Source of the DNA: Nitrospirales bacterium
Lineage (GTDB): Bacteria; Nitrospirota; Nitrospiria; Nitrospirales; UBA8639
Length of the DNA stretch: 64,000 nucleotides
Direction of reading: 5' to 3'
Assembly (NCBI GenBank): GCA_963555755.3
Contig: OY820905.2
Location: 3,456,001 to 3,520,000, forward strand
The position numbers and the translations under genes are program-made. The number at the start of each line of letters is the position of its first letter. Positions within the stretch are counted from its first letter, which is position 1. Of this stretch, positions 55,144-64,000 are shown piece after piece. The notes beneath the pieces were generated by a model that was given only the letters and a program-made list of their open reading frames with translations, did no database searches and had not been told where the DNA came from.

Positions 55144-55860
55144 TTAGACAATATCCGAAGACAATGGTTCTTCTTCGGCAGAGGTATGAGAGGAAAGCCC
55201 AGTCGAAGGCAGTTCTTTGGGATGGATCAGGGTCAAGCAATCTTCCGCCACAGGGTCTTTGTGGAACAGGGCATAGATTGGAAATATTTTAGACGCATGG
55301 CCTCCCTGCTGAGAAGGCAATAACACTGGGACTTCTACCCACGGTGAGGGTGTATCCAAACTTGCCAAGCGAAGGCGAACGGCTAACAGCATATCTCGGA
55401 TTCGGGTCTCTCCCTCAGGAGTCCCAACTTCCGATGAATCGGCGATACTCCGACTCCACAAAGACTTGGTGATGCCAACGGCCAAATTAAATCCTACACC
55501 TTTGGCCTTCTTGCTCACATCGATAAGCAGACCTGCATCAATCGCTTCCTGGCGAGACGTAATGTGACGAGAAGGCTCCTGTGCCTCGGATGCTGGGATC
55601 ACCGTCTGTTCTTCCGATGATGCGCCAAGATTTAAGGTTTCTTCGAAAAGCCCCTCCGCCCCCACCGGGATCTCGATTGAATCAACATCCGTTTCAACTG
55701 GCTCGAAGGAATCAACGGTTAAGCCTCTCGCATGCAACACTCCGTCATACACGGCCCGGGCCGACTTGGACCAAGACGAATGAAAGGGCCTTCCTTGGTA
55801 CGCCGCTTCCGCCGCTTTTTTCTCATCATGGCTCAAGGCACGTGGTAGTTTCATATCCAT
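55144..55860 (-). CDS. Hypothetical protein (C-terminal DUF6573-like segment)
   Basis: SRQEAIDAGLLIDVS..A...GF...V.IT..LW pattern, recalled rather than verified. Confidence 0.6.
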   Translation of the reverse strand: MDMKLPRALSHDEKKAAEAAYQGRPFHSSWSKSARAVYDGVLHARGLTVDSFEPVETDVDSIEIPVGAEGLFEETLNLGASSEEQTVIPASEAQEPSRHITSRQEAIDAGLLIDVSKKAKGVGFNLAVGITKSLWSRSIADSSEVGTPEGETRIRDMLLAVRLRLASLDTPSPWVEVPVLLPSQQGGHASKIFPIYALFHKDPVAEDCLTLIHPKELPSTGLSSHTSAEEEPLSSDIV

Positions 55861-56035: not shown

Positions 56036-57544
56036 TTACGGAATGAGGCCTGGGGAAGATTGGGCAAATTGTACTCCACCCACCTGGTTCACCAAATGCG
56101 TGACACTGGCATCCATCATTTCCATCAATGGACCAGGATACAGGCCAATCCACAGCACGAGGACGGCTAAGGGAATGACCGTTGCTAATTCACGATAGCT
56201 TAAGTCAGGGAGAAGCGAGGCGGCTTTTGTATTGGGCTCACCCAGGGCCACTCGTTGCAACATCCAAAGCATATAGGCCGCAGCCAAGACGATGCCCACC
56301 ATCGCGAGTAACACCATCACAAAACTTTTGAAGGAGGTACCGATGAGTACCAAGAATTCACCGATAAAATTACACGTACCCGGCAGGCCAAATGACGCAA
56401 TGGAGAAAAGACAAAACAACGTCACAAACCGAGGCATGGTTTTGTGAAGGCCGCCATAGGCACTGATGTCGCGATTGTGTGTCCGGTCATACAACTGACC
56501 GACTGCCAAAAATAGGGCTCCTGTTGTAATACCATGATTAAACATCTGAAGAATCGCGCCCTGAATGCCCTGGCTATTGAAGACAAAAATTCCAAGCGTC
56601 ACAAATCCCATATGGGAAATCGAAGAATAGGCGACCAGCTTTTTAAGATCCGACTGTGCCAAGGCCATGTACCCGCCGTAGATGATAGCCGCGATCGACA
56701 ACCATAAAATAAACGGCGCAAATTGTGCTGAAGCCTCTGGAAACATAGGCAGGCAAAATCGCAAAAACCCATACCCGCCCATTTTCAACAACACTCCAGC
56801 GAGAAGAACACTTCCCGCGGTTGGGGCTTCCGCATGGGCATCAGGCAACCACGTATGGAAAGGCAGCATGGGTATCTTGATGGCAAAGGCTAAAAAGAAC
56901 GCTAAGAAAATCCAAAACTGTACATCCGATGAATAGGTGTGATTGGTGAGGGCCACAATATCAAAAGTGCGGCCCCCTTCGAGATACAGACCTAAAATCC
57001 CCACGAGTAACAACAAGCTACCCGTGAGGCTGTACAGAACAAACTTGATGCCTGCGGCAATCCGGTCGGGTCCTCCCCACAGGATAATCATGAAATACAT
57101 GGGAATCATGGTGATTTCCCACAGCATGAAGAAGAGGAAAAGATCCAGTGCGGTAAAGACCACAATCATGGCGCCTTCAACTAGAAGGATCAGCATCATG
57201 AAGGCTCTGACCCTCGTGGTGATGGACGTCCAAGAGCAGAGGACACAAAGCGGACAGAGAAGAGCCGTTAACAAAACCAGCAGGATGCTAATTCCATCGA
57301 CACCCACGGCATACTGAATGTTGAAGGTGGGCATCCACTGCATACGCTCAACGAACTGCATGCTATGCTGTCCGAAATCAAAACCAGACCAGAGCATGAG
57401 GGACAGCCCAAAATTTAGCAGGGTAGCAGCGAGCGCCGTTCGACGAATCCACTCTTGATTTTGAACGAATGCCAGAGCGGCAATTCCAAGAACAGGAATG
57501 GCAATCATCCAACTAAGAATGTGATCGGCAAAGATAAAGCTCAT
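56036..57544 (-). CDS. NuoM-like antiporter-type membrane subunit
   Basis: GVDGIS, FFMLWE, KIPMLPFHTWLPDAHAEAP, LLKMGGYG, AYSSISHMG. Confidence 0.9.
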   Translation of the reverse strand: MSFIFADHILSWMIAIPVLGIAALAFVQNQEWIRRTALAATLLNFGLSLMLWSGFDFGQHSMQFVERMQWMPTFNIQYAVGVDGISILLVLLTALLCPLCVLCSWTSITTRVRAFMMLILLVEGAMIVVFTALDLFLFFMLWEITMIPMYFMIILWGGPDRIAAGIKFVLYSLTGSLLLLVGILGLYLEGGRTFDIVALTNHTYSSDVQFWIFLAFFLAFAIKIPMLPFHTWLPDAHAEAPTAGSVLLAGVLLKMGGYGFLRFCLPMFPEASAQFAPFILWLSIAAIIYGGYMALAQSDLKKLVAYSSISHMGFVTLGIFVFNSQGIQGAILQMFNHGITTGALFLAVGQLYDRTHNRDISAYGGLHKTMPRFVTLFCLFSIASFGLPGTCNFIGEFLVLIGTSFKSFVMVLLAMVGIVLAAAYMLWMLQRVALGEPNTKAASLLPDLSYRELATVIPLAVLVLWIGLYPGPLMEMMDASVTHLVNQVGGVQFAQSSPGLIP

Positions 57545-57585
57545 GGGATCCCCTTCTCCCTACACAAGTTCCAATAGGGTTCTCA

Positions 57586-59760
57586 TTACACAAGCCAATA
57601 GAAAAGCCCTATAGCTGCCACTAACCAAAAAATCATGACCAATAAATGGTGCTGAAGCGTCCGTGGTTCGATTCTCTGCAAAAGATGACCTGTTGCATCG
57701 GCCTCCCGTCCCAACCGTTCGACATTCTTTTCAATCCCGCGAATATCGATAACCTGCCAGAGCCACTGAGCCAGGTTCACGGTTTGACCACCAATCCCAA
57801 CTACCCTTCGATCAATGCCTTTGACATCCACTACTTGCCACAGCCAACGAGCGAGGCTCACGGTTTGACGCCCAATCCCAACCACCCCGCGATCTATTCC
57901 TCTGACATCTACAACCTGCCACAGCCATCTGGCCAACGTAACCGATACCCCAGCAATACCACTAATGAAGCGATCAATACCTCCAAGATCAACAGTCCGC
58001 CATAACCATGTGGACAATCGAAGTGTGGGTTGAATCACATAGACTTCGTAGATCTCATCAAAATACAATTTATTCAAAAAAAGTACATACAAAGTTTTTC
58101 CCCATTCCGACTGTGCCAGGAATGATGGTCGGGGTTTGATATGAAGGAAGTAGGCAAAACCCCATCCGCAAAATGCCACGACAAGCGGTAACATGATCCA
58201 CAAAGAGATTCCCCCAAACGTGGTCTGTTCATTGAGGAGTGGAACAGGCTGCCCCAATGCCGGTGCCAGGAATTGAACAAACCACCCCCACAACACCATG
58301 AGAACGCTCACCAACATCACGCCCGCAACGAAAAGTCCTACGAGGTGTGAAGGCGAAAACAACTGGGGCTGGACGACAAACGATTTCCCACCTTCCACAT
58401 CTCTGACTGAGGGTCCGCCCTGAAAGAATAAGAGGATTCCCCGAAAGAGATACATCGCCGTAAAAAAGACAGTGGCTAAGCCCATCACCCAAAAGACAGT
58501 TTTGGCTGAAGCAAAATTATGCACGGTCCACAAATATTCATAAGGCCCTGAAAAGATCACGAAAGGAGGAATGCAGGCTAACACCAGTGCGCCAACAGAC
58601 AAAGACCATGCTGGCCTCGAGGTCGGCCCATGGCCAACATCAGACTGAGGATGGCCGTGGGCTTGAACCGACCGTAGGGCGTTCCCTGTAGACAGGAATA
58701 AAAATGCTTTCAAACATCCATGAGCTAACACATGAAACGTCGCGGCCACAAACGCCCCAATGCCGCAGGTCATGATCATGAACCCAATTTGACTGATCGT
58801 GGAGTAAGCGAGAATCTTTTTAATATCGGTCTGCGTCAGTGAGACAATCGCCGCGAACAGAGCCGTCACCGCACCGACAACCGCGATGACGGTCATAGCC
58901 AGTGGCGAGAAAACAATCAACGGACTTAAACGAATGAGAAGGAAGGGCCCCGCATTCACCATGGTTGCCGCATGGATCAGCGCTGAGACAGGGGTGGGCG
59001 CTTCCATGGCAAACGGCAACCATACATGGAAAGGAAGTTGCGCGGACTTTCCCATTGCACCCATCAACAATAAAAGGGAAATCACTGTCAGGGTGTGAAC
59101 TGAGTATTCAAGCCCTATCCATCCCAACAGATTCATCGTATGCCCACGCATGCTGTCCGCCTGAATCAAAATTTGTTGAATGTCGAGAGTCCCAAATGTG
59201 GCAAAGGTCAGGATGATTCCGAACCCGAGTCCAACATCCGCAACGGCGTTGACTAAAAACGCTTTCGTGGCGGCCTGGCATGCTGATTGTCTTTGAGCAT
59301 AATGGGAGATCAAGAGATAGGAACAGATCCCCATGATCTCCCAACAGATAAACAACATGAGCAGGTTGCTACTCATCACCAACATCACCATGGAAAAGGT
59401 AAACAACGCGATGACCGCGAAGAAACGATTGTAACGGGGATCCCCGATCATGTATCGGGAAGAGTAGATGTGAACGATGCTGCTGACCCCTGTGACCAAC
59501 ATCAACAAGAGGACGGTGAGTTGGTCGATATACAGACCAAGGTCGACGACGAGATTTCCGGACTGAATGAAGCGGTAGAGAGGAACTGATATGGCTCCGT
59601 TCCTTACAACCTCAATGAATGCGCCTACCGACAATCCGAAGGATACACCTATCGCAGGAATCGCAACTTTGTGGCTTTTCTCTCCCACCCACCGCCCGCC
59701 CAACGCGAGAGTAAGAAACGCCACCAAAGGAAGAAGCGGGATCAGAACGTAAACTGACAT
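57586..59760 (-). CDS. NuoL/MrpA-like antiporter-type subunit with extended C-terminal helix
   Basis: WEIMG, GKSAQLPFHVWLP.AMEAPTPVSALIHAATMV, AYSTISQIG; 27-aa repeats at the C-terminus. Confidence 0.9.
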   Translation of the reverse strand: MSVYVLIPLLPLVAFLTLALGGRWVGEKSHKVAIPAIGVSFGLSVGAFIEVVRNGAISVPLYRFIQSGNLVVDLGLYIDQLTVLLLMLVTGVSSIVHIYSSRYMIGDPRYNRFFAVIALFTFSMVMLVMSSNLLMLFICWEIMGICSYLLISHYAQRQSACQAATKAFLVNAVADVGLGFGIILTFATFGTLDIQQILIQADSMRGHTMNLLGWIGLEYSVHTLTVISLLLLMGAMGKSAQLPFHVWLPFAMEAPTPVSALIHAATMVNAGPFLLIRLSPLIVFSPLAMTVIAVVGAVTALFAAIVSLTQTDIKKILAYSTISQIGFMIMTCGIGAFVAATFHVLAHGCLKAFLFLSTGNALRSVQAHGHPQSDVGHGPTSRPAWSLSVGALVLACIPPFVIFSGPYEYLWTVHNFASAKTVFWVMGLATVFFTAMYLFRGILLFFQGGPSVRDVEGGKSFVVQPQLFSPSHLVGLFVAGVMLVSVLMVLWGWFVQFLAPALGQPVPLLNEQTTFGGISLWIMLPLVVAFCGWGFAYFLHIKPRPSFLAQSEWGKTLYVLFLNKLYFDEIYEVYVIQPTLRLSTWLWRTVDLGGIDRFISGIAGVSVTLARWLWQVVDVRGIDRGVVGIGRQTVSLARWLWQVVDVKGIDRRVVGIGGQTVNLAQWLWQVIDIRGIEKNVERLGREADATGHLLQRIEPRTLQHHLLVMIFWLVAAIGLFYWLV

Positions 59761-59863
59761 AGGCTATCTAAAGAATGAACGATTATGAAATTGTTGAACA
59801 ATTCATTTTTCTGACATCAACTGTGCTATCTGATCGATTAAGATAGATTGCCAAGTAGGAATG

Positions 59864-59984
59864 GGGAATGTTCAAAAAGGTTGTCCAGCAAGGCCGCAGG
59901 GCCTTTGGCGCGCGCAGCGTACACGGAGTACGTGAGCACGACAAAGGCTCGAGAACGCAGCTGGCGGCCTTTTTCAACATTCCC
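59864..59984 (+). mobile_element. MITE family D inside the mrp/nuo cluster
   Basis: GGGAATGTTCAAAAAGG...TTTTTCAACATTCCC with the shared core. Confidence 0.75.
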
Positions 59985-59991
59985 CTTAAGA

Positions 59992-61461
59992 TTACAGCCC
60001 CGCGGGCAGAGCTGAATCAAGCAAAAACCCTACAATGGGATCACTGAACAACCCTAAAAGGATGATCGCGGCTGACACAACACCTATACTCACTTTCATA
60101 GATAATGGCGCCTCAACAGAAATGATCCCTGAAGATGGTTGAGTATCACGAAAAATACGTTCAAAGAGCTTAATGAAATAGGCCAACGTCAAAACAGTAG
60201 AGATGATCACCGCCGCAACCGCGAGATAATTCTGGGCTTCAAGAGCGCCAAGGATGATATACCATTTGCCAAAAAATCCACCGGTTGGGGGAAATCCAAC
60301 CATCGACATGGCCATGATGATGAGCGCACCCGTCATCCATGGCGCTTGTCCTCGCAAACGGCCCAAATCCTCGATGGTCCGAACGCCATACTGATACATC
60401 GCGGCACCTGCCAGGAAAAAGAGGGCGGCCTGCATAACCGCATCATTGATTAAATAAAACACCCCTCCTGCAAAACCCGTCGGATTTCCAATACCGACCC
60501 CGATGAGGATCAACCCAATATGAGAAATCCCACCATAGGCGAACATTCGTTTAACTTCATGTTGTGTCAATGCCAGAAATGCCCCAACCACTGCGGCAAG
60601 GGCCCCCAACTCCACCAGAAGGAACAGGACTGGAACATGTTCAATTTCCGCATTCGCACCCACCACCCAAAACATGATCCGGATCCAGGCGAGTAAGGCC
60701 ACTTTGGTGACCAAAGAAGCGAGGAAAGGTGAAATGGCGTCCGGTGCATGAGTATAGGCATCAGGCAACCACCCATGAAGTGGCATGAGTGCCATCTTAA
60801 TTCCGAGGCCGAGGAACATGAAAATCAACCCTCCAACGATGGCTTTGGAAGTTAATAATTCAGGCACTCGCTGAGCCAAGTCCGCCATGTTGAGCGTTCC
60901 CGTCGCCGCATAAAAGTAGCCCACCCCTAATAAATACAAGGAGGCCCCAAGCGTGCCCAAAATGAGATATCGAAAGGCGGAGACGAGAGCTTTCCCACCT
61001 GCAACTCCTACCAGGGCATACCCGGATAACGCGGCAACTTCCAGGAACACAAACACGTTAAATAAATCCCCAGCGAAGACGATCCCTGTAACCGCTGCAA
61101 TCAACAAAAGGATCAAGGTGTAGTAGGGCACAATCCGTTGTCCAAGCGCAGAAGACGATGTCGGACCTGCATTGATCAAGGAAATCAATGCCAATAGGCT
61201 GAGGGTCACCATGATGACACTCGCCAGCCCATCATCGACCCATTCAATGCCAATGGGAGGCGCCCAGCCGCTGAAGGCATAACGAATTTCTCCTGAATCC
61301 ATGACGACGACAATATTGGCAATCGATGCGACACTCATGGCAGAGACAGCCGCTATTGCCATCGGTTGACACCACTCACGATGTTTCAATCCGACCATGG
61401 GCAAAGAGATGGCTGTCAAGAAGGGAAGCAGGAAGAGGAGCGCGGGAAGGTGATGACTCAT
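59992..61461 (-). CDS. mrpD: Mrp antiporter subunit D
   Basis: GWAPPIGIE, DLFNVFVFLE, TGTLNMADL, PLHGWLPDAY. Confidence 0.87.
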   Translation of the reverse strand: MSHHLPALLFLLPFLTAISLPMVGLKHREWCQPMAIAAVSAMSVASIANIVVVMDSGEIRYAFSGWAPPIGIEWVDDGLASVIMVTLSLLALISLINAGPTSSSALGQRIVPYYTLILLLIAAVTGIVFAGDLFNVFVFLEVAALSGYALVGVAGGKALVSAFRYLILGTLGASLYLLGVGYFYAATGTLNMADLAQRVPELLTSKAIVGGLIFMFLGLGIKMALMPLHGWLPDAYTHAPDAISPFLASLVTKVALLAWIRIMFWVVGANAEIEHVPVLFLLVELGALAAVVGAFLALTQHEVKRMFAYGGISHIGLILIGVGIGNPTGFAGGVFYLINDAVMQAALFFLAGAAMYQYGVRTIEDLGRLRGQAPWMTGALIIMAMSMVGFPPTGGFFGKWYIILGALEAQNYLAVAAVIISTVLTLAYFIKLFERIFRDTQPSSGIISVEAPLSMKVSIGVVSAAIILLGLFSDPIVGFLLDSALPAGL

Positions 61462-61835
61462 TCCAATCTCTTCAAAATTTCATCTTCATCCAAGGTGCCA
61501 TATTTCCGATAAATCGCCGCGACCAAGGCCAAAGAGACGCCCAAGGTCGCGACCTGGACCACGATCGCCGTTAACGTCAAGACATGCGGTAATGGATTGG
61601 TATAGGTGGCAGCTTGGACTGGGCCTGTTCCGGACAACAGAATAGGAACCGTGGCTCCTGTTTTCGCACTGATTGCCACGAGAAAAAAAATCACGCTGGT
61701 CTGCACGATGTACATGCCAATGAGCTTTTTGACAAGGTTATGGTGGGTCACCATGATGTAGAAGCCCCAGAGAAACAGGATCACGAAGGCAATAAAGTTT
61801 GACCGGTGAAGCCACGTCTCAATGAGTTCAAGCAT
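61458..61835 (-). CDS. mrpC: Mrp antiporter subunit C
   Basis: NLVKKLIG, NPLPHVL.LTAIVV. Confidence 0.87.
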   Translation of the reverse strand: MLELIETWLHRSNFIAFVILFLWGFYIMVTHHNLVKKLIGMYIVQTSVIFFLVAISAKTGATVPILLSGTGPVQAATYTNPLPHVLTLTAIVVQVATLGVSLALVAAIYRKYGTLDEDEILKRLE

Positions 61836-62277
61836 GTGAGTCCTCGTCGTTGTCGTTGGACGACAAACTAAACACAATAGAGATAACCGTCACGGCGACA
61901 TCGACCGCTACACCAATTTGTGTCAGCATGATGCCCACATAACGGCGTGAAGCGACCTCGAGGCCGTAGATTTCGAGGGCGGCGTAATTCAAAAACTCCC
62001 CTCCCCCGATCAGACACAACCCACCGACCCCAGCAAATATCAGCAAACCAAGCCCATCACCATGCACCACCTTCTGCGCCACATTGCTATACGAAGCGTG
62101 AGGACCAAAAATGAGGATCGATAAAATCATACTCGTGCCAAAAATCACCCCACCCACAAATCCTCCCCCGGGGCCATACTGTCCAAAGAACAGCACATAC
62201 AATCCATACAATTGCATTAAGGGAATCAAGAGTCGTCCTAACATGAGAACAATGACACTATCGTGCGCTTGGATCAT
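61828..62277 (-). CDS. mrpB: MrpB/MnhB-domain subunit
   Basis: GPGGGFVGG motif. Confidence 0.82.
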   Translation of the reverse strand: MIQAHDSVIVLMLGRLLIPLMQLYGLYVLFFGQYGPGGGFVGGVIFGTSMILSILIFGPHASYSNVAQKVVHGDGLGLLIFAGVGGLCLIGGGEFLNYAALEIYGLEVASRRYVGIMLTQIGVAVDVAVTVISIVFSLSSNDNDEDSHA

Positions 62278-62804
62278 GCCTTGTTTCTCCTGAGCAACAA
62301 GGCACAGGCAATCCCGGCTGTAAAAATCACAACGGTCTCAAGCAACGTATCGAAAGCGCGGTAGTCCATAAGAACCGAGGTCACGACATTGGGGGTAAGG
62401 GTATCGTGCATACTGTTTTCCAAGTACACGGGAGAAATATGAACGCTTGCAGGAGAGGCAGGATCTCCAAATTTGGGAAGATCCTCGGCCGCATACAAGA
62501 GGAGAAAGCCAAGCAGAGGCAATCCGATCAACGCGGCCCAGGGAGGGGGCGGACGATGAAGGCGAGTATCCTTTGGAGCTGTCTCAAATAGCGTCAAGAG
62601 AAAAAACACCGTCCCCAAGCCCGCGCCCACGACTGCTTCAACAAACGCCACATCTACAGCTCCAATCCATGCCCACACCAACGCTAAAAAGAAACTGTAG
62701 GACCCCAAAATAAACACCGCTGGCACCAAGTCTTTGACCAGAATGGCTCCACCCGCTGTCAGAATCAGGAGAATCAGTAGAGGAATTTCAAATGAAAACG
62801 TCAT
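62274..62804 (-). CDS. DUF4040/MbhE-type Mrp subunit (split MrpA C-terminus / MrpB N-terminus)
   Basis: A.DVAF.EA.VGAG, PNVVT.VL.DYRAFDTL.E. Confidence 0.82.
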   Translation of the reverse strand: MTFSFEIPLLILLILTAGGAILVKDLVPAVFILGSYSFFLALVWAWIGAVDVAFVEAVVGAGLGTVFFLLTLFETAPKDTRLHRPPPPWAALIGLPLLGFLLLYAAEDLPKFGDPASPASVHISPVYLENSMHDTLTPNVVTSVLMDYRAFDTLLETVVIFTAGIACALLLRRNKA

Positions 62805-63100
62805 GGTTGTTCTCGCCCCCAAGGTTTGAGGCCAGAGCGAAGCGCCGCGCGAATGGTGGCATGTGAAACGACAGGATTCAATAGATACAGAAGAGCCAGA
62901 ACCACGAGAATTTTGAGCAGGTTCAAGCTGAATCCTTGGTAAATGGCCAACCCTGCCAATACCAGAAACGCACCCAAGGAGTCAGTCAGTGAGAGGGCAT
63001 GTGAGCGGGTAAACACATCTGGCAAACGCAGCATGCCAATGGCCGCGACGATCAGAAAAAACAATCCTGCGAGAATAAAAACGATGGCAATCAGAGACAT
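62801..63100 (-). CDS. mrpG: Mrp antiporter subunit G
   Basis: G.LRLPDVFTR.HA. Confidence 0.87.
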   Translation of the reverse strand: MSLIAIVFILAGLFFLIVAAIGMLRLPDVFTRSHALSLTDSLGAFLVLAGLAIYQGFSLNLLKILVVLALLYLLNPVVSHATIRAALRSGLKPWGREQP

Positions 63101-63367
63101 TTACGCCCTTCCTCGCTGTTCAAGAAATTTGGCAATGGCCAAGGCACCCACGAGATTGAGCAAGGCATATCCCGTGGAGATATCCACGAACATGTCCACC
63201 CGCCCATATACGGTCCCGATCACCACCAGCAAAATAATGGCTTTCGTCGAGATGCCATTGAGGCCCAACACTTGGTCAAACACTGTGGGGCCTTGGACCA
63301 CACGGTACAAATACGCCAAAATTAAGATCACAAGGACGATCAACACGAACAGAAAAAAGAATTTCAT
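63101..63367 (-). CDS. mrpF: Mrp antiporter subunit F
   Basis: R...GPT..D motif. Confidence 0.85.
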   Translation of the reverse strand: MKFFFLFVLIVLVILILAYLYRVVQGPTVFDQVLGLNGISTKAIILLVVIGTVYGRVDMFVDISTGYALLNLVGALAIAKFLEQRGRA

Positions 63368-63861
63368 GCTGAACCCTCTTGCTGCCGAAACACCTTGGCA
63401 ATTTTTTGTTCGAGCCGTTGACTGGTCAAATCATCGCCAGATGCATCATCCATCGCATGGACGATGAGTTCCTGAGCATTCACTTCAGCCGTGATCGTGC
63501 CAGGAGTCAGCGTAATGGAATTTCCTAGAAGAACGATGGCGGCTTGGCCCTGCAACTTGGTTCGGTAGTGAATAAGCTTCGGATCAATGGGAAGAGCAGG
63601 ATGAAGAATGAGGGCAGTCAGATGAAGACTGCTGAGCACAATGCGCCCAAAGAGCCACGGGAAATACCCCAAAATTCGCAACAGGGGTAAGTTTCGGAAA
63701 GGAGAGTCTGCGTGGCCTGAATTCAGCCAAGCCACGCCAAAAGACACCACGAGCCCGAGGCCCATATGAAACGGGTTATATTTTCCTGACAAAATGAGCC
63801 AAATGACAAAAAAAACCAAACTCTTCAAGATGAGTGTTTTATAGAGGCTAGAGTTCATCAT
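63364..63861 (-). CDS. mrpE: Mrp antiporter subunit E
   Basis: NSITLTPGTI, VHA. Confidence 0.88.
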   Translation of the reverse strand: MMNSSLYKTLILKSLVFFVIWLILSGKYNPFHMGLGLVVSFGVAWLNSGHADSPFRNLPLLRILGYFPWLFGRIVLSSLHLTALILHPALPIDPKLIHYRTKLQGQAAIVLLGNSITLTPGTITAEVNAQELIVHAMDDASGDDLTSQRLEQKIAKVFRQQEGSA

Positions 63862-63882: not shown

Positions 63883-64000
63883 CTACCCACCCGCGGTCAA
63901 CGCCATGTGTTCCCAAGTTGCATCAGGGTTATATCGATGAATCTCAAAGGTGTTGGGGTCCAGTGCAATAAGATTAAGCCATTGGTTATGGAAAAGCTGC
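63883..64000 (-). CDS. 3' end of a probable DUF2309/DabA inorganic-carbon transporter subunit (truncated by window)
   Basis: Manual translation QLFHNQWLNLIALDPNTFEIHRYNPDATWEHMALTAGG* resembles the recalled DUF2309 C-terminus (LxxNxWlxLxxxD). Confidence 0.6.
   Translation of the reverse strand, partial: QLFHNQWLNLIALDPNTFEIHRYNPDATWEHMALTAGG

Follow-up and report, generated by a model that had tools for sequence, protein, structure and literature searches.

The window analysed here is a stretch of 64,000 nucleotides from the genome of a Nitrospirales bacterium, and towards its far end it carries an Mrp-type operon on the minus strand, with the gene order dabA-mrpE-F-G-B1 (MbhD/E)-B2-C-mrpD-nuoL-nuoM. 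Its Mrp genes comprise MrpB, C, D, E, F and G together with the parts of MrpA, which here is divided between two genes, one NuoL-like and one MbhD/E-like; NuoM is added to these. The operon is bounded by dabA and by an unrelated open reading frame (ORF), and genes for NuoA-K or for quinone and Fe-S modules are absent from it. Its features are as follows:

63883..64000, minus strand: 3′ end of dabA (PF10070), which runs past the window to G000:C1:3523029
63364..63861, minus strand: MrpE, by profile search
63101..63367, minus strand: MrpF, by profile search
62801..63100, minus strand: MrpG, by profile search
62274..62804, minus strand: MbhD+MbhE-like subunit, corresponding to MrpA's C-terminal part and encoded by a gene of its own, by profile search
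61828..62277, minus strand: MrpB (MnhB domain), by profile search
61458..61835, minus strand: MrpC-like subunit, by profile search
59992..61461, minus strand: MrpD-like subunit of 489 aa, by profile search
59863..59985, no strand assigned: MITE-like element of 123 nt that has terminal inverted repeats of 18 nt and separates mrpD from nuoL; it falls outside the protein finding
57586..59760, minus strand: NuoL-like subunit of 724 aa (TIGR01974, 505.9 bits, above the cut-off; alignment)
57946..58026, minus strand: helix unit 1, aa 579-605, which is the ancestral module for NuoM docking (its D591 aligned to Paracoccus Nqo12 D648)
57865..57945, minus strand: helix unit 2, aa 606-632, an extra module, by alignment
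57784..57864, minus strand: helix unit 3, aa 633-659, an extra module, by alignment
57703..57783, minus strand: helix unit 4, aa 660-686, the last module, by alignment
57586..57669, minus strand: last part of the lateral helix, from E698 on, followed by TM16, the C-terminal anchor helix, by hydropathy and a model of the tail
56036..57544, minus strand: the sole NuoM-like subunit of the operon, 502 aa (TIGR01972, 625.9 bits)

At the head of the operon, dabA, which is carbonic-anhydrase-like, matches PF10070 at 888 bits, is present in single copy in the genome and encodes the Cys-Asp-His-Cys zinc-site motifs. Beyond it lie a short, divergent ORF and a further ORF (together G000:C1:3523221-3526121), both of which recur at related loci; we take the first to be DUF2294/MpsC-like and the second is presumably SulP-like. 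At the other end, downstream of nuoM, a 238-aa ORF (55144-55860) has a weak match to DUF6573, below the Pfam cut-off. The 123-nt element has 302 BLAST matches in the genome, 218 of them of at least 100 nt, and the nuoL ribosome site downstream of it scores weak. At three related loci (L044:1-5468, L053:424-6484 and L096) a separate cluster of dabB, a short NuoM-like gene (357-438 aa) and dabA adjoins the mrp operon; at the first two it is divergent and stands in place of an in-line dabA. The axis residues E143, K223, K254, H311, H337 and E396 of NuoM are the same in all 87 aligned sequences. The NuoL-like subunit keeps the Glu of TM5 and the Lys of TM7, and is without the Arg of TM6 and the Ser-Lys-Asp motif of TM12; the latter is found in none of 57 relatives, as against 19 of the 20 canonical NuoL proteins fetched.

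Near the NuoL-like subunit's C-terminus, the triplet WLW starts at residues 585, 612, 639 and 666 (window positions 58008, 57927, 57846 and 57765), with a period of exactly 81 nt between starts, and each is followed by xxxDxxGI(D/E). The four units are in register along the lateral helix, at 57703-58026. A first-pass annotation had described four tandem 27-aa units with an exact 81-nt period at this place, and the ORF positions agree with it, as do TRF, which returns a period of 81 with a score of 242, and the BLOSUM autocorrelation of the protein, which at a lag of 27 is 3.36, a value reached in none of 5000 shuffles (the top shuffle gave 0.57). An assembly artefact was ruled out as the source of the array: 56653-59913 is spanned with zero differences by contigs from two runs belonging to different studies, one of which may be the assembly's own source. 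The Trp and Asp residues W612, W614 and D618 of unit 2 are invariant among 61 aligned sequences, W639, W641 and D645 of unit 3 are invariant too, and unit 3 is 81% identical to unit 2 in amino acids and 74% in nucleotides. In unit 4, D672 is kept in a fraction of about 0.83, and the C-terminal half is more polar and variable. Across 303 internal units both Trp are present in 0.98, the docking Asp in 0.97 and the second Asp in 0.94, fractions that are biased toward conservation because the underlying proteins were retrieved with the array region as query.

The nature of one unit is indicated by its alignment to known structures. Unit 1 aligns to the single lateral-helix module of Paracoccus Nqo12 (8qby_L), and D591, D618, D645 and D672 of units 1-4 all align to Nqo12 D648. 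We take P564-N566 of E. coli NuoL to be the spot equivalent to this docking Asp. In E. coli the helix kinks and contacts NuoM at those residues (PMC3274701), while in Paracoccus complex I the D648 of the helix is coordinated by H239 and Y315 of NuoM, a link to which PMC9802314 gives a structural role. On the NuoM side of our operon the corresponding docking partners, H230 (TM7) and Y306 (TM10), matched to H239 and Y315 by the numbering of PMC9802314, are invariant in 87 of 87 aligned NuoM rows. The best 19-residue window of the repeat region has a hydropathy of 1.27, compared with 2.54 for TM16. On a plain alpha-helix reading the hydrophobic moment turns by about 180 degrees at every Asp motif, so a kink or bulge is needed in each unit; the amphipathic phase resets at each motif, with a periodicity peak of 93 degrees across 86 four-unit tails. 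A model of the tail alone consists of helices of about 25 residues with breaks at 617-618, 644-645, 671-672 and 697-698, at low confidence (pTM 0.23, mean pLDDT 64), and the model of the full-length subunit is helical across the units, with pLDDT below 50 over most of units 2-4. Hydropathy and the two models, both of low confidence in this region, rule out a transmembrane fold of the repeats, and the pTM of the tail model rules out a globular or compact one; neither of the outcomes that the first-pass annotation had set against its own reading, membrane helices or a soluble domain, was found. A fold search returned NuoL, ND5 and NdhF chains only, among the 50 matches listed. The region has the properties of the NuoL/ND5 lateral helix, being amphipathic and non-transmembrane, lying between TM15 and TM16 and carrying a conserved Asp at the kink. 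From the alignment to the Nqo12 helix, the docking Asp and the kinked-helix profile, it follows that the units are NuoM-docking helix modules.

Within the lateral helix, constraint is strongest on the extra units, which are not decaying. Among 15 close four-unit orthologues, whose pairs are not independent, pooled dN/dS is 0.186, 0.059, 0.077 and 0.134 for units 1-4, and 0.052 and 0.045 for two membrane-core segments of the same proteins. Between units 2 and 3 of the window, the fraction of sites that differ is 0.65 for synonymous and 0.12 for non-synonymous sites, and the two are therefore kept alike by selection rather than by recent duplication; the synonymous divergence rules out a recent neutral duplication of these two units. 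Young duplications of units do occur at four other loci (L014, L019, L036 and L048).

Tail length was taken from the YxDE anchor of NuoL to its C-terminus, the anchor being located in 185 of the 191 sequences used, a partly redundant set made up of 120 proteins from databases and 71 ORFs from loci or genomes. Within this genome, the tail is 77 aa in canonical NuoL, 109 aa in the NuoL of the 2M complex I and 159 aa in the NuoL-like subunit, and the first-pass annotation had rightly equated one module with the step from canonical to 2M NuoL. Across all sequences, tails cluster at 76-77, 103-109, 132-137, 159-161, 185-189 and 211 aa, which is a 27-aa grid; tails of 80 and 89 aa, and a few more among metagenome loci, fall off it. 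The operon is spanned from mrpE to at least 1.6 kb beyond nuoM at 63 of 151 loci, and these were taken for counting; the other 88 comprise 48 unspanned or without mrp, 19 without a full L, 15 short downstream and 6 without a tail. One unit is found at seven of the 63 loci, two at five, three at 23, four at 22, five at five and six at one. Whatever the unit count, from 1 to 6, exactly three antiporter-like genes are present in 62 of the 63 operons, the lone exception (L096) having the separate DabB-type cluster adjoining. A lack of correlation between repeat number and subunit number was what the first-pass annotation had named as refuting its reading, and at the level of genes repeat number indeed does not track subunit number. 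On a quick tree of tail-less cores (57 rows) unit number has changed at least 13 times, and the closest relative of the window has three units. The canonical NuoL proteins fetched from 20 of the 41 genomes that were compared for NuoM-like matches have a 77-aa tail in all 19 that could be measured. The 2M controls are as published: the 2M NuoL of this genome and Chloroflexaceae L062 and L066 (both with 105-aa tails) have two modules and two nuoM, in L-M-M-N clusters. The array is real, under selection and variable in copy number; it is made up of NuoM-docking modules and lies in an Mrp-type operon that is linked to DabA and has a single nuoM.

Several further observations concern particular lineages. 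Two-module tails (103-104 aa) occur in L-M-N clusters with one nuoM at L060, L061 and L070, and at L060 a second L-M-N block lies directly downstream of the first. In the lineage of L093 (P0113), L096 and L097 the later units are of 26 residues rather than 27, and L093 has the longest array found, with six units. A one-unit clade (L049, L052, L055, L058 and L126-L135) is nested among three-unit lineages and has a degenerate tail motif; its MrpD, NuoM and small Mrp subunits are more diverged. Its excess distance is 0.10 for L, 0.27 for M and 0.64 for D; with NuoM and MrpD both accelerated, and MrpD more so, the signal is not specific to NuoM. A sister operon, dabA-nuoL-nuoM (L047, L101, L104, L107 and L112), has sulP downstream and is without mrp, nuoN or mrpD nearby; its helix has one module, with a tail of 89-106 aa, at least the length seen in complex I, and thus one slot without a gene there too.

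One way to account for the constant gene content is that the complex is assembled 1:1:1 as L-M-D, with one unit docking NuoM, the rest looping out as Trp-anchored amphipathic surface helices that stabilise the complex or bind lipid, and the count drifting by unequal crossing-over. We regard this as unlikely, yet several points speak for it: the three antiporter-like genes of 62 of the 63 operons, the intact operons of the one-unit relatives, the 13 or more changes of unit number, and the fact that quantised lengths arise from crossing-over between 81-nt repeats alone. In the literature, the NuoL of Manganitrophaceae has 26-aa inserts without an extra gene (PMC9040806), and simulations have put the head group of a lipid at the docking Asp (PMC9802314). 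Such drift is harder to reconcile with extra units that are under tighter constraint than the ancestral unit and keep both Asp, with the retention by each position of its own sequence although synonymous sites between units are near saturation, and with the fixed tail of canonical NuoL in the same genomes.

The first-pass annotation had expected further subunits either to lie upstream or to be used in multiple copies, and the first of these did not hold. The genome is 99.4% complete and has exactly ten PF00361 genes, all of which are accounted for by three complexes (L-M-N, L-M-M-N and the present D-L-M); as dabA directly adjoins mrpE, there are no further subunits upstream, and extra antiporter genes there or elsewhere are ruled out. 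The same annotation had predicted up to three more antiporter-like subunits than in complex I; the length of the helix leaves room for them, but no further antiporter-like genes exist to encode them. The slots might instead be taken by NuoM paralogues that belong to the cell's own canonical or 2M complex I and are borrowed from it, and the 57% identity between operon NuoM and canonical NuoM is compatible with this. We think it very improbable, since in this genome each paralogue belongs to a complete L-M-N or L-M-M-N block, and since 27 of 41 genomes have five NuoM-like matches (matches, not copy numbers), among them genomes with one, two, three, four and five units.

A conserved NuoM-docking Asp would most simply be paired with NuoM itself, and one gene alone is there to supply it. 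In the model to which this leads, the four units serve as a ruler along which about four copies of NuoM are lined up head to tail, with the NuoL-like subunit on one side and MrpD on the other, in what is predicted to be a DabA-capped Mrp-type pump for inorganic carbon. We put forward this ruler model tentatively, at not quite an even chance. DabA would dock on the NuoL-like subunit in the manner known from DabB, each helix unit would bind one copy of NuoM, and TM16 would close the arm at MrpD/MrpC. The arm in this genome would be L-M4-D, and its length (L-Mn-D) could be reset by adding or removing an 81-nt unit, with no gene duplication required. The role of the NuoL-like subunit as dock for DabA is suggested by its loss of the TM12 motif, as in DabB, together with the finger Glu that takes the place of these residues in DAB2.

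Evidence bearing on the ruler model comes from several sides. In its favour are the alignment of the Asp of all four units to Nqo12 D648, the invariant H230 and Y306 on NuoM, the 27-aa grid of tail lengths, the low dN/dS of units 2 and 3, the docking Asp in 0.97 of internal units, and the amphipathic phase and tail model, which reset or break at each Asp. Among complexes of known structure, the length of the helix agrees with the number of subunits (PMC7684303 and PMC8165549). In the 2M NuoL of this genome the second module is without the motif, and its two NuoM paralogues are 30% identical; the internal modules of the NuoL-like subunit are unlike this in being similar to each other, as expected if their partners are identical. 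The ribosome site of nuoM in the window is strong, but raised nuoM output was not seen in the codon score, which at -0.029 is below those of nuoL and mrpD (about 0), and across 46 loci ribosome-site strength does not track unit number, the one-unit clade being equally strong. No convergence of NuoM on NuoL (toward 16, away 34) or on MrpD (toward 36, away 33) was found at any region. Codon, ribosome-site and interface comparisons lend the model no support. NuoM evolves slowly relative to NuoL, at a ratio of 0.70 compared with 1.00 in canonical complex I; it is about equally slow relative to MrpD or NuoN, with tree-length ratios of 0.66 and 0.72, so faster evolution of NuoL explains the 0.70 equally well. 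RNA contigs are sparse, with a depth of about 3, which is too thin to rank genes. Also against the ruler model, unit number changes at least 13 times on the 57-row tree, a lability that would be surprising in a stoichiometry. A single proton at a normal motive force ought to be enough for bicarbonate to accumulate strongly, which leaves no clear need for six modules. The lateral helix of E. coli also tolerates several short insertions (PMC3274701), which counts against the model. In the proteome of Nitrospira marina the mrp-nuoL-nuoM cluster has zero spectral counts in six of six samples and hence yields no stoichiometry (PMC8115632).

The extra units could alternatively bind some other partner, namely a second protomer, DabA, or the SulP transporter that is often encoded nearby. 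In MBS the lateral helix provides a dimer contact (PMC7684303), Mrp likewise forms a dimer (PMC7419157) and sulP adjoins many of the loci; nevertheless the motif that is retained is the NuoM-docking one, and a fixed partner is ill-suited to one to six units with unchanged gene content, which makes this explanation improbable.

As in the 2M complex I of Nitrospira and Chloroflexota, the lateral helix is lengthened by a module, here as a 27-residue step taken three times; the likeness is one of length only. The 2M insert is traced to Chadwick et al. 2018, via PMC9040806 and PMC6606698. Unlike 2M complex I, there are three extra modules rather than one, a single nuoM with no second nuoM in the cluster, no nuoA-K redox genes in the operon, and near-identical tandem units that number from 1 to 6. 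In 'Ca. Manganitrophaceae', NuoL and MrpD2 carry 26-aa helix inserts, as does NuoL in the other forms of complex I there, and PMC9040806 reads the insert as a capacity for extra subunits, or as a transition toward or away from them. Two-unit helices without an extra gene are already published in that paper, in whose accessible text we found neither a proposal of a multi-copy ruler nor a test of selection; the present arrays differ in having up to five extra units rather than one, and in belonging to a redox-free DabA-Mrp operon rather than to complex I.

The operon resembles the vectorial carbonic anhydrases DAB1/DAB2 and MpsAB (10.1101/476713, PMC13684180 and 10.64898/2026.03.13.711513) in that dabA stands at its head, with zinc ligands and conserved motifs, and the NuoL-like subunit is like DabB in being without the TM12 Lys/Asp. 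In DAB2 a Glu on the DabA finger replaces the TM12 residues (10.64898/2026.03.13.711513); that the finger has a proton role is contested in the work on DAB1 (PMC13684180). DabB is described as having a short lateral helix and forming a dimer or trimer; here, in contrast, the partner is NuoL-like with a long helix, is closer to NuoL than to DabB (E 2e-86 for 8qby_L and 4e-38 for DabB2) and is accompanied by NuoM, MrpD and six small Mrp genes. In the Group 3 Mrp cluster of 'Ca. Nitrospira alkalitolerans', mrp genes are likewise followed by two nuoL/M-like genes downstream of mrpD; the cluster was read as extra mrpA/D-like genes for pH homeostasis, in an account whose accessible text is without DUF2309/DabA or helix repeats (PMC7784846). 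Related work includes PMC10579370 and PMC3046159. In the literature searched, outside of which lie subscription papers and preprint supplements, we found no report of arrays of three to six units or of multi-copy use of one nuoM.

How many pumping modules a complex-I-like machine has is normally judged by counting its nuoL/M/N-type genes, and the lateral helix is said to agree with that count. Here helix units and genes are apart by as many as five modules, and purifying selection is strong; this means either that the rule of matching does not hold or that a single pump subunit enters the complex more than once. The natural series of one to six units with identical gene content makes this question directly testable, and could show how the gear ratio of such pumps is tuned or might be engineered. 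In its general form the ruler model would have one nuoM supply a head-to-tail polymer, with 1-6 copies set by 81-nt units as by a tape measure, in a CO2-hydrating Mrp-type machine of at most eight antiporter-like subunits; we hold this general form a little more doubtful than the model for the four-unit arm. If it is true, ion-pump stoichiometry in the complex I superfamily would not be readable from gene counts.
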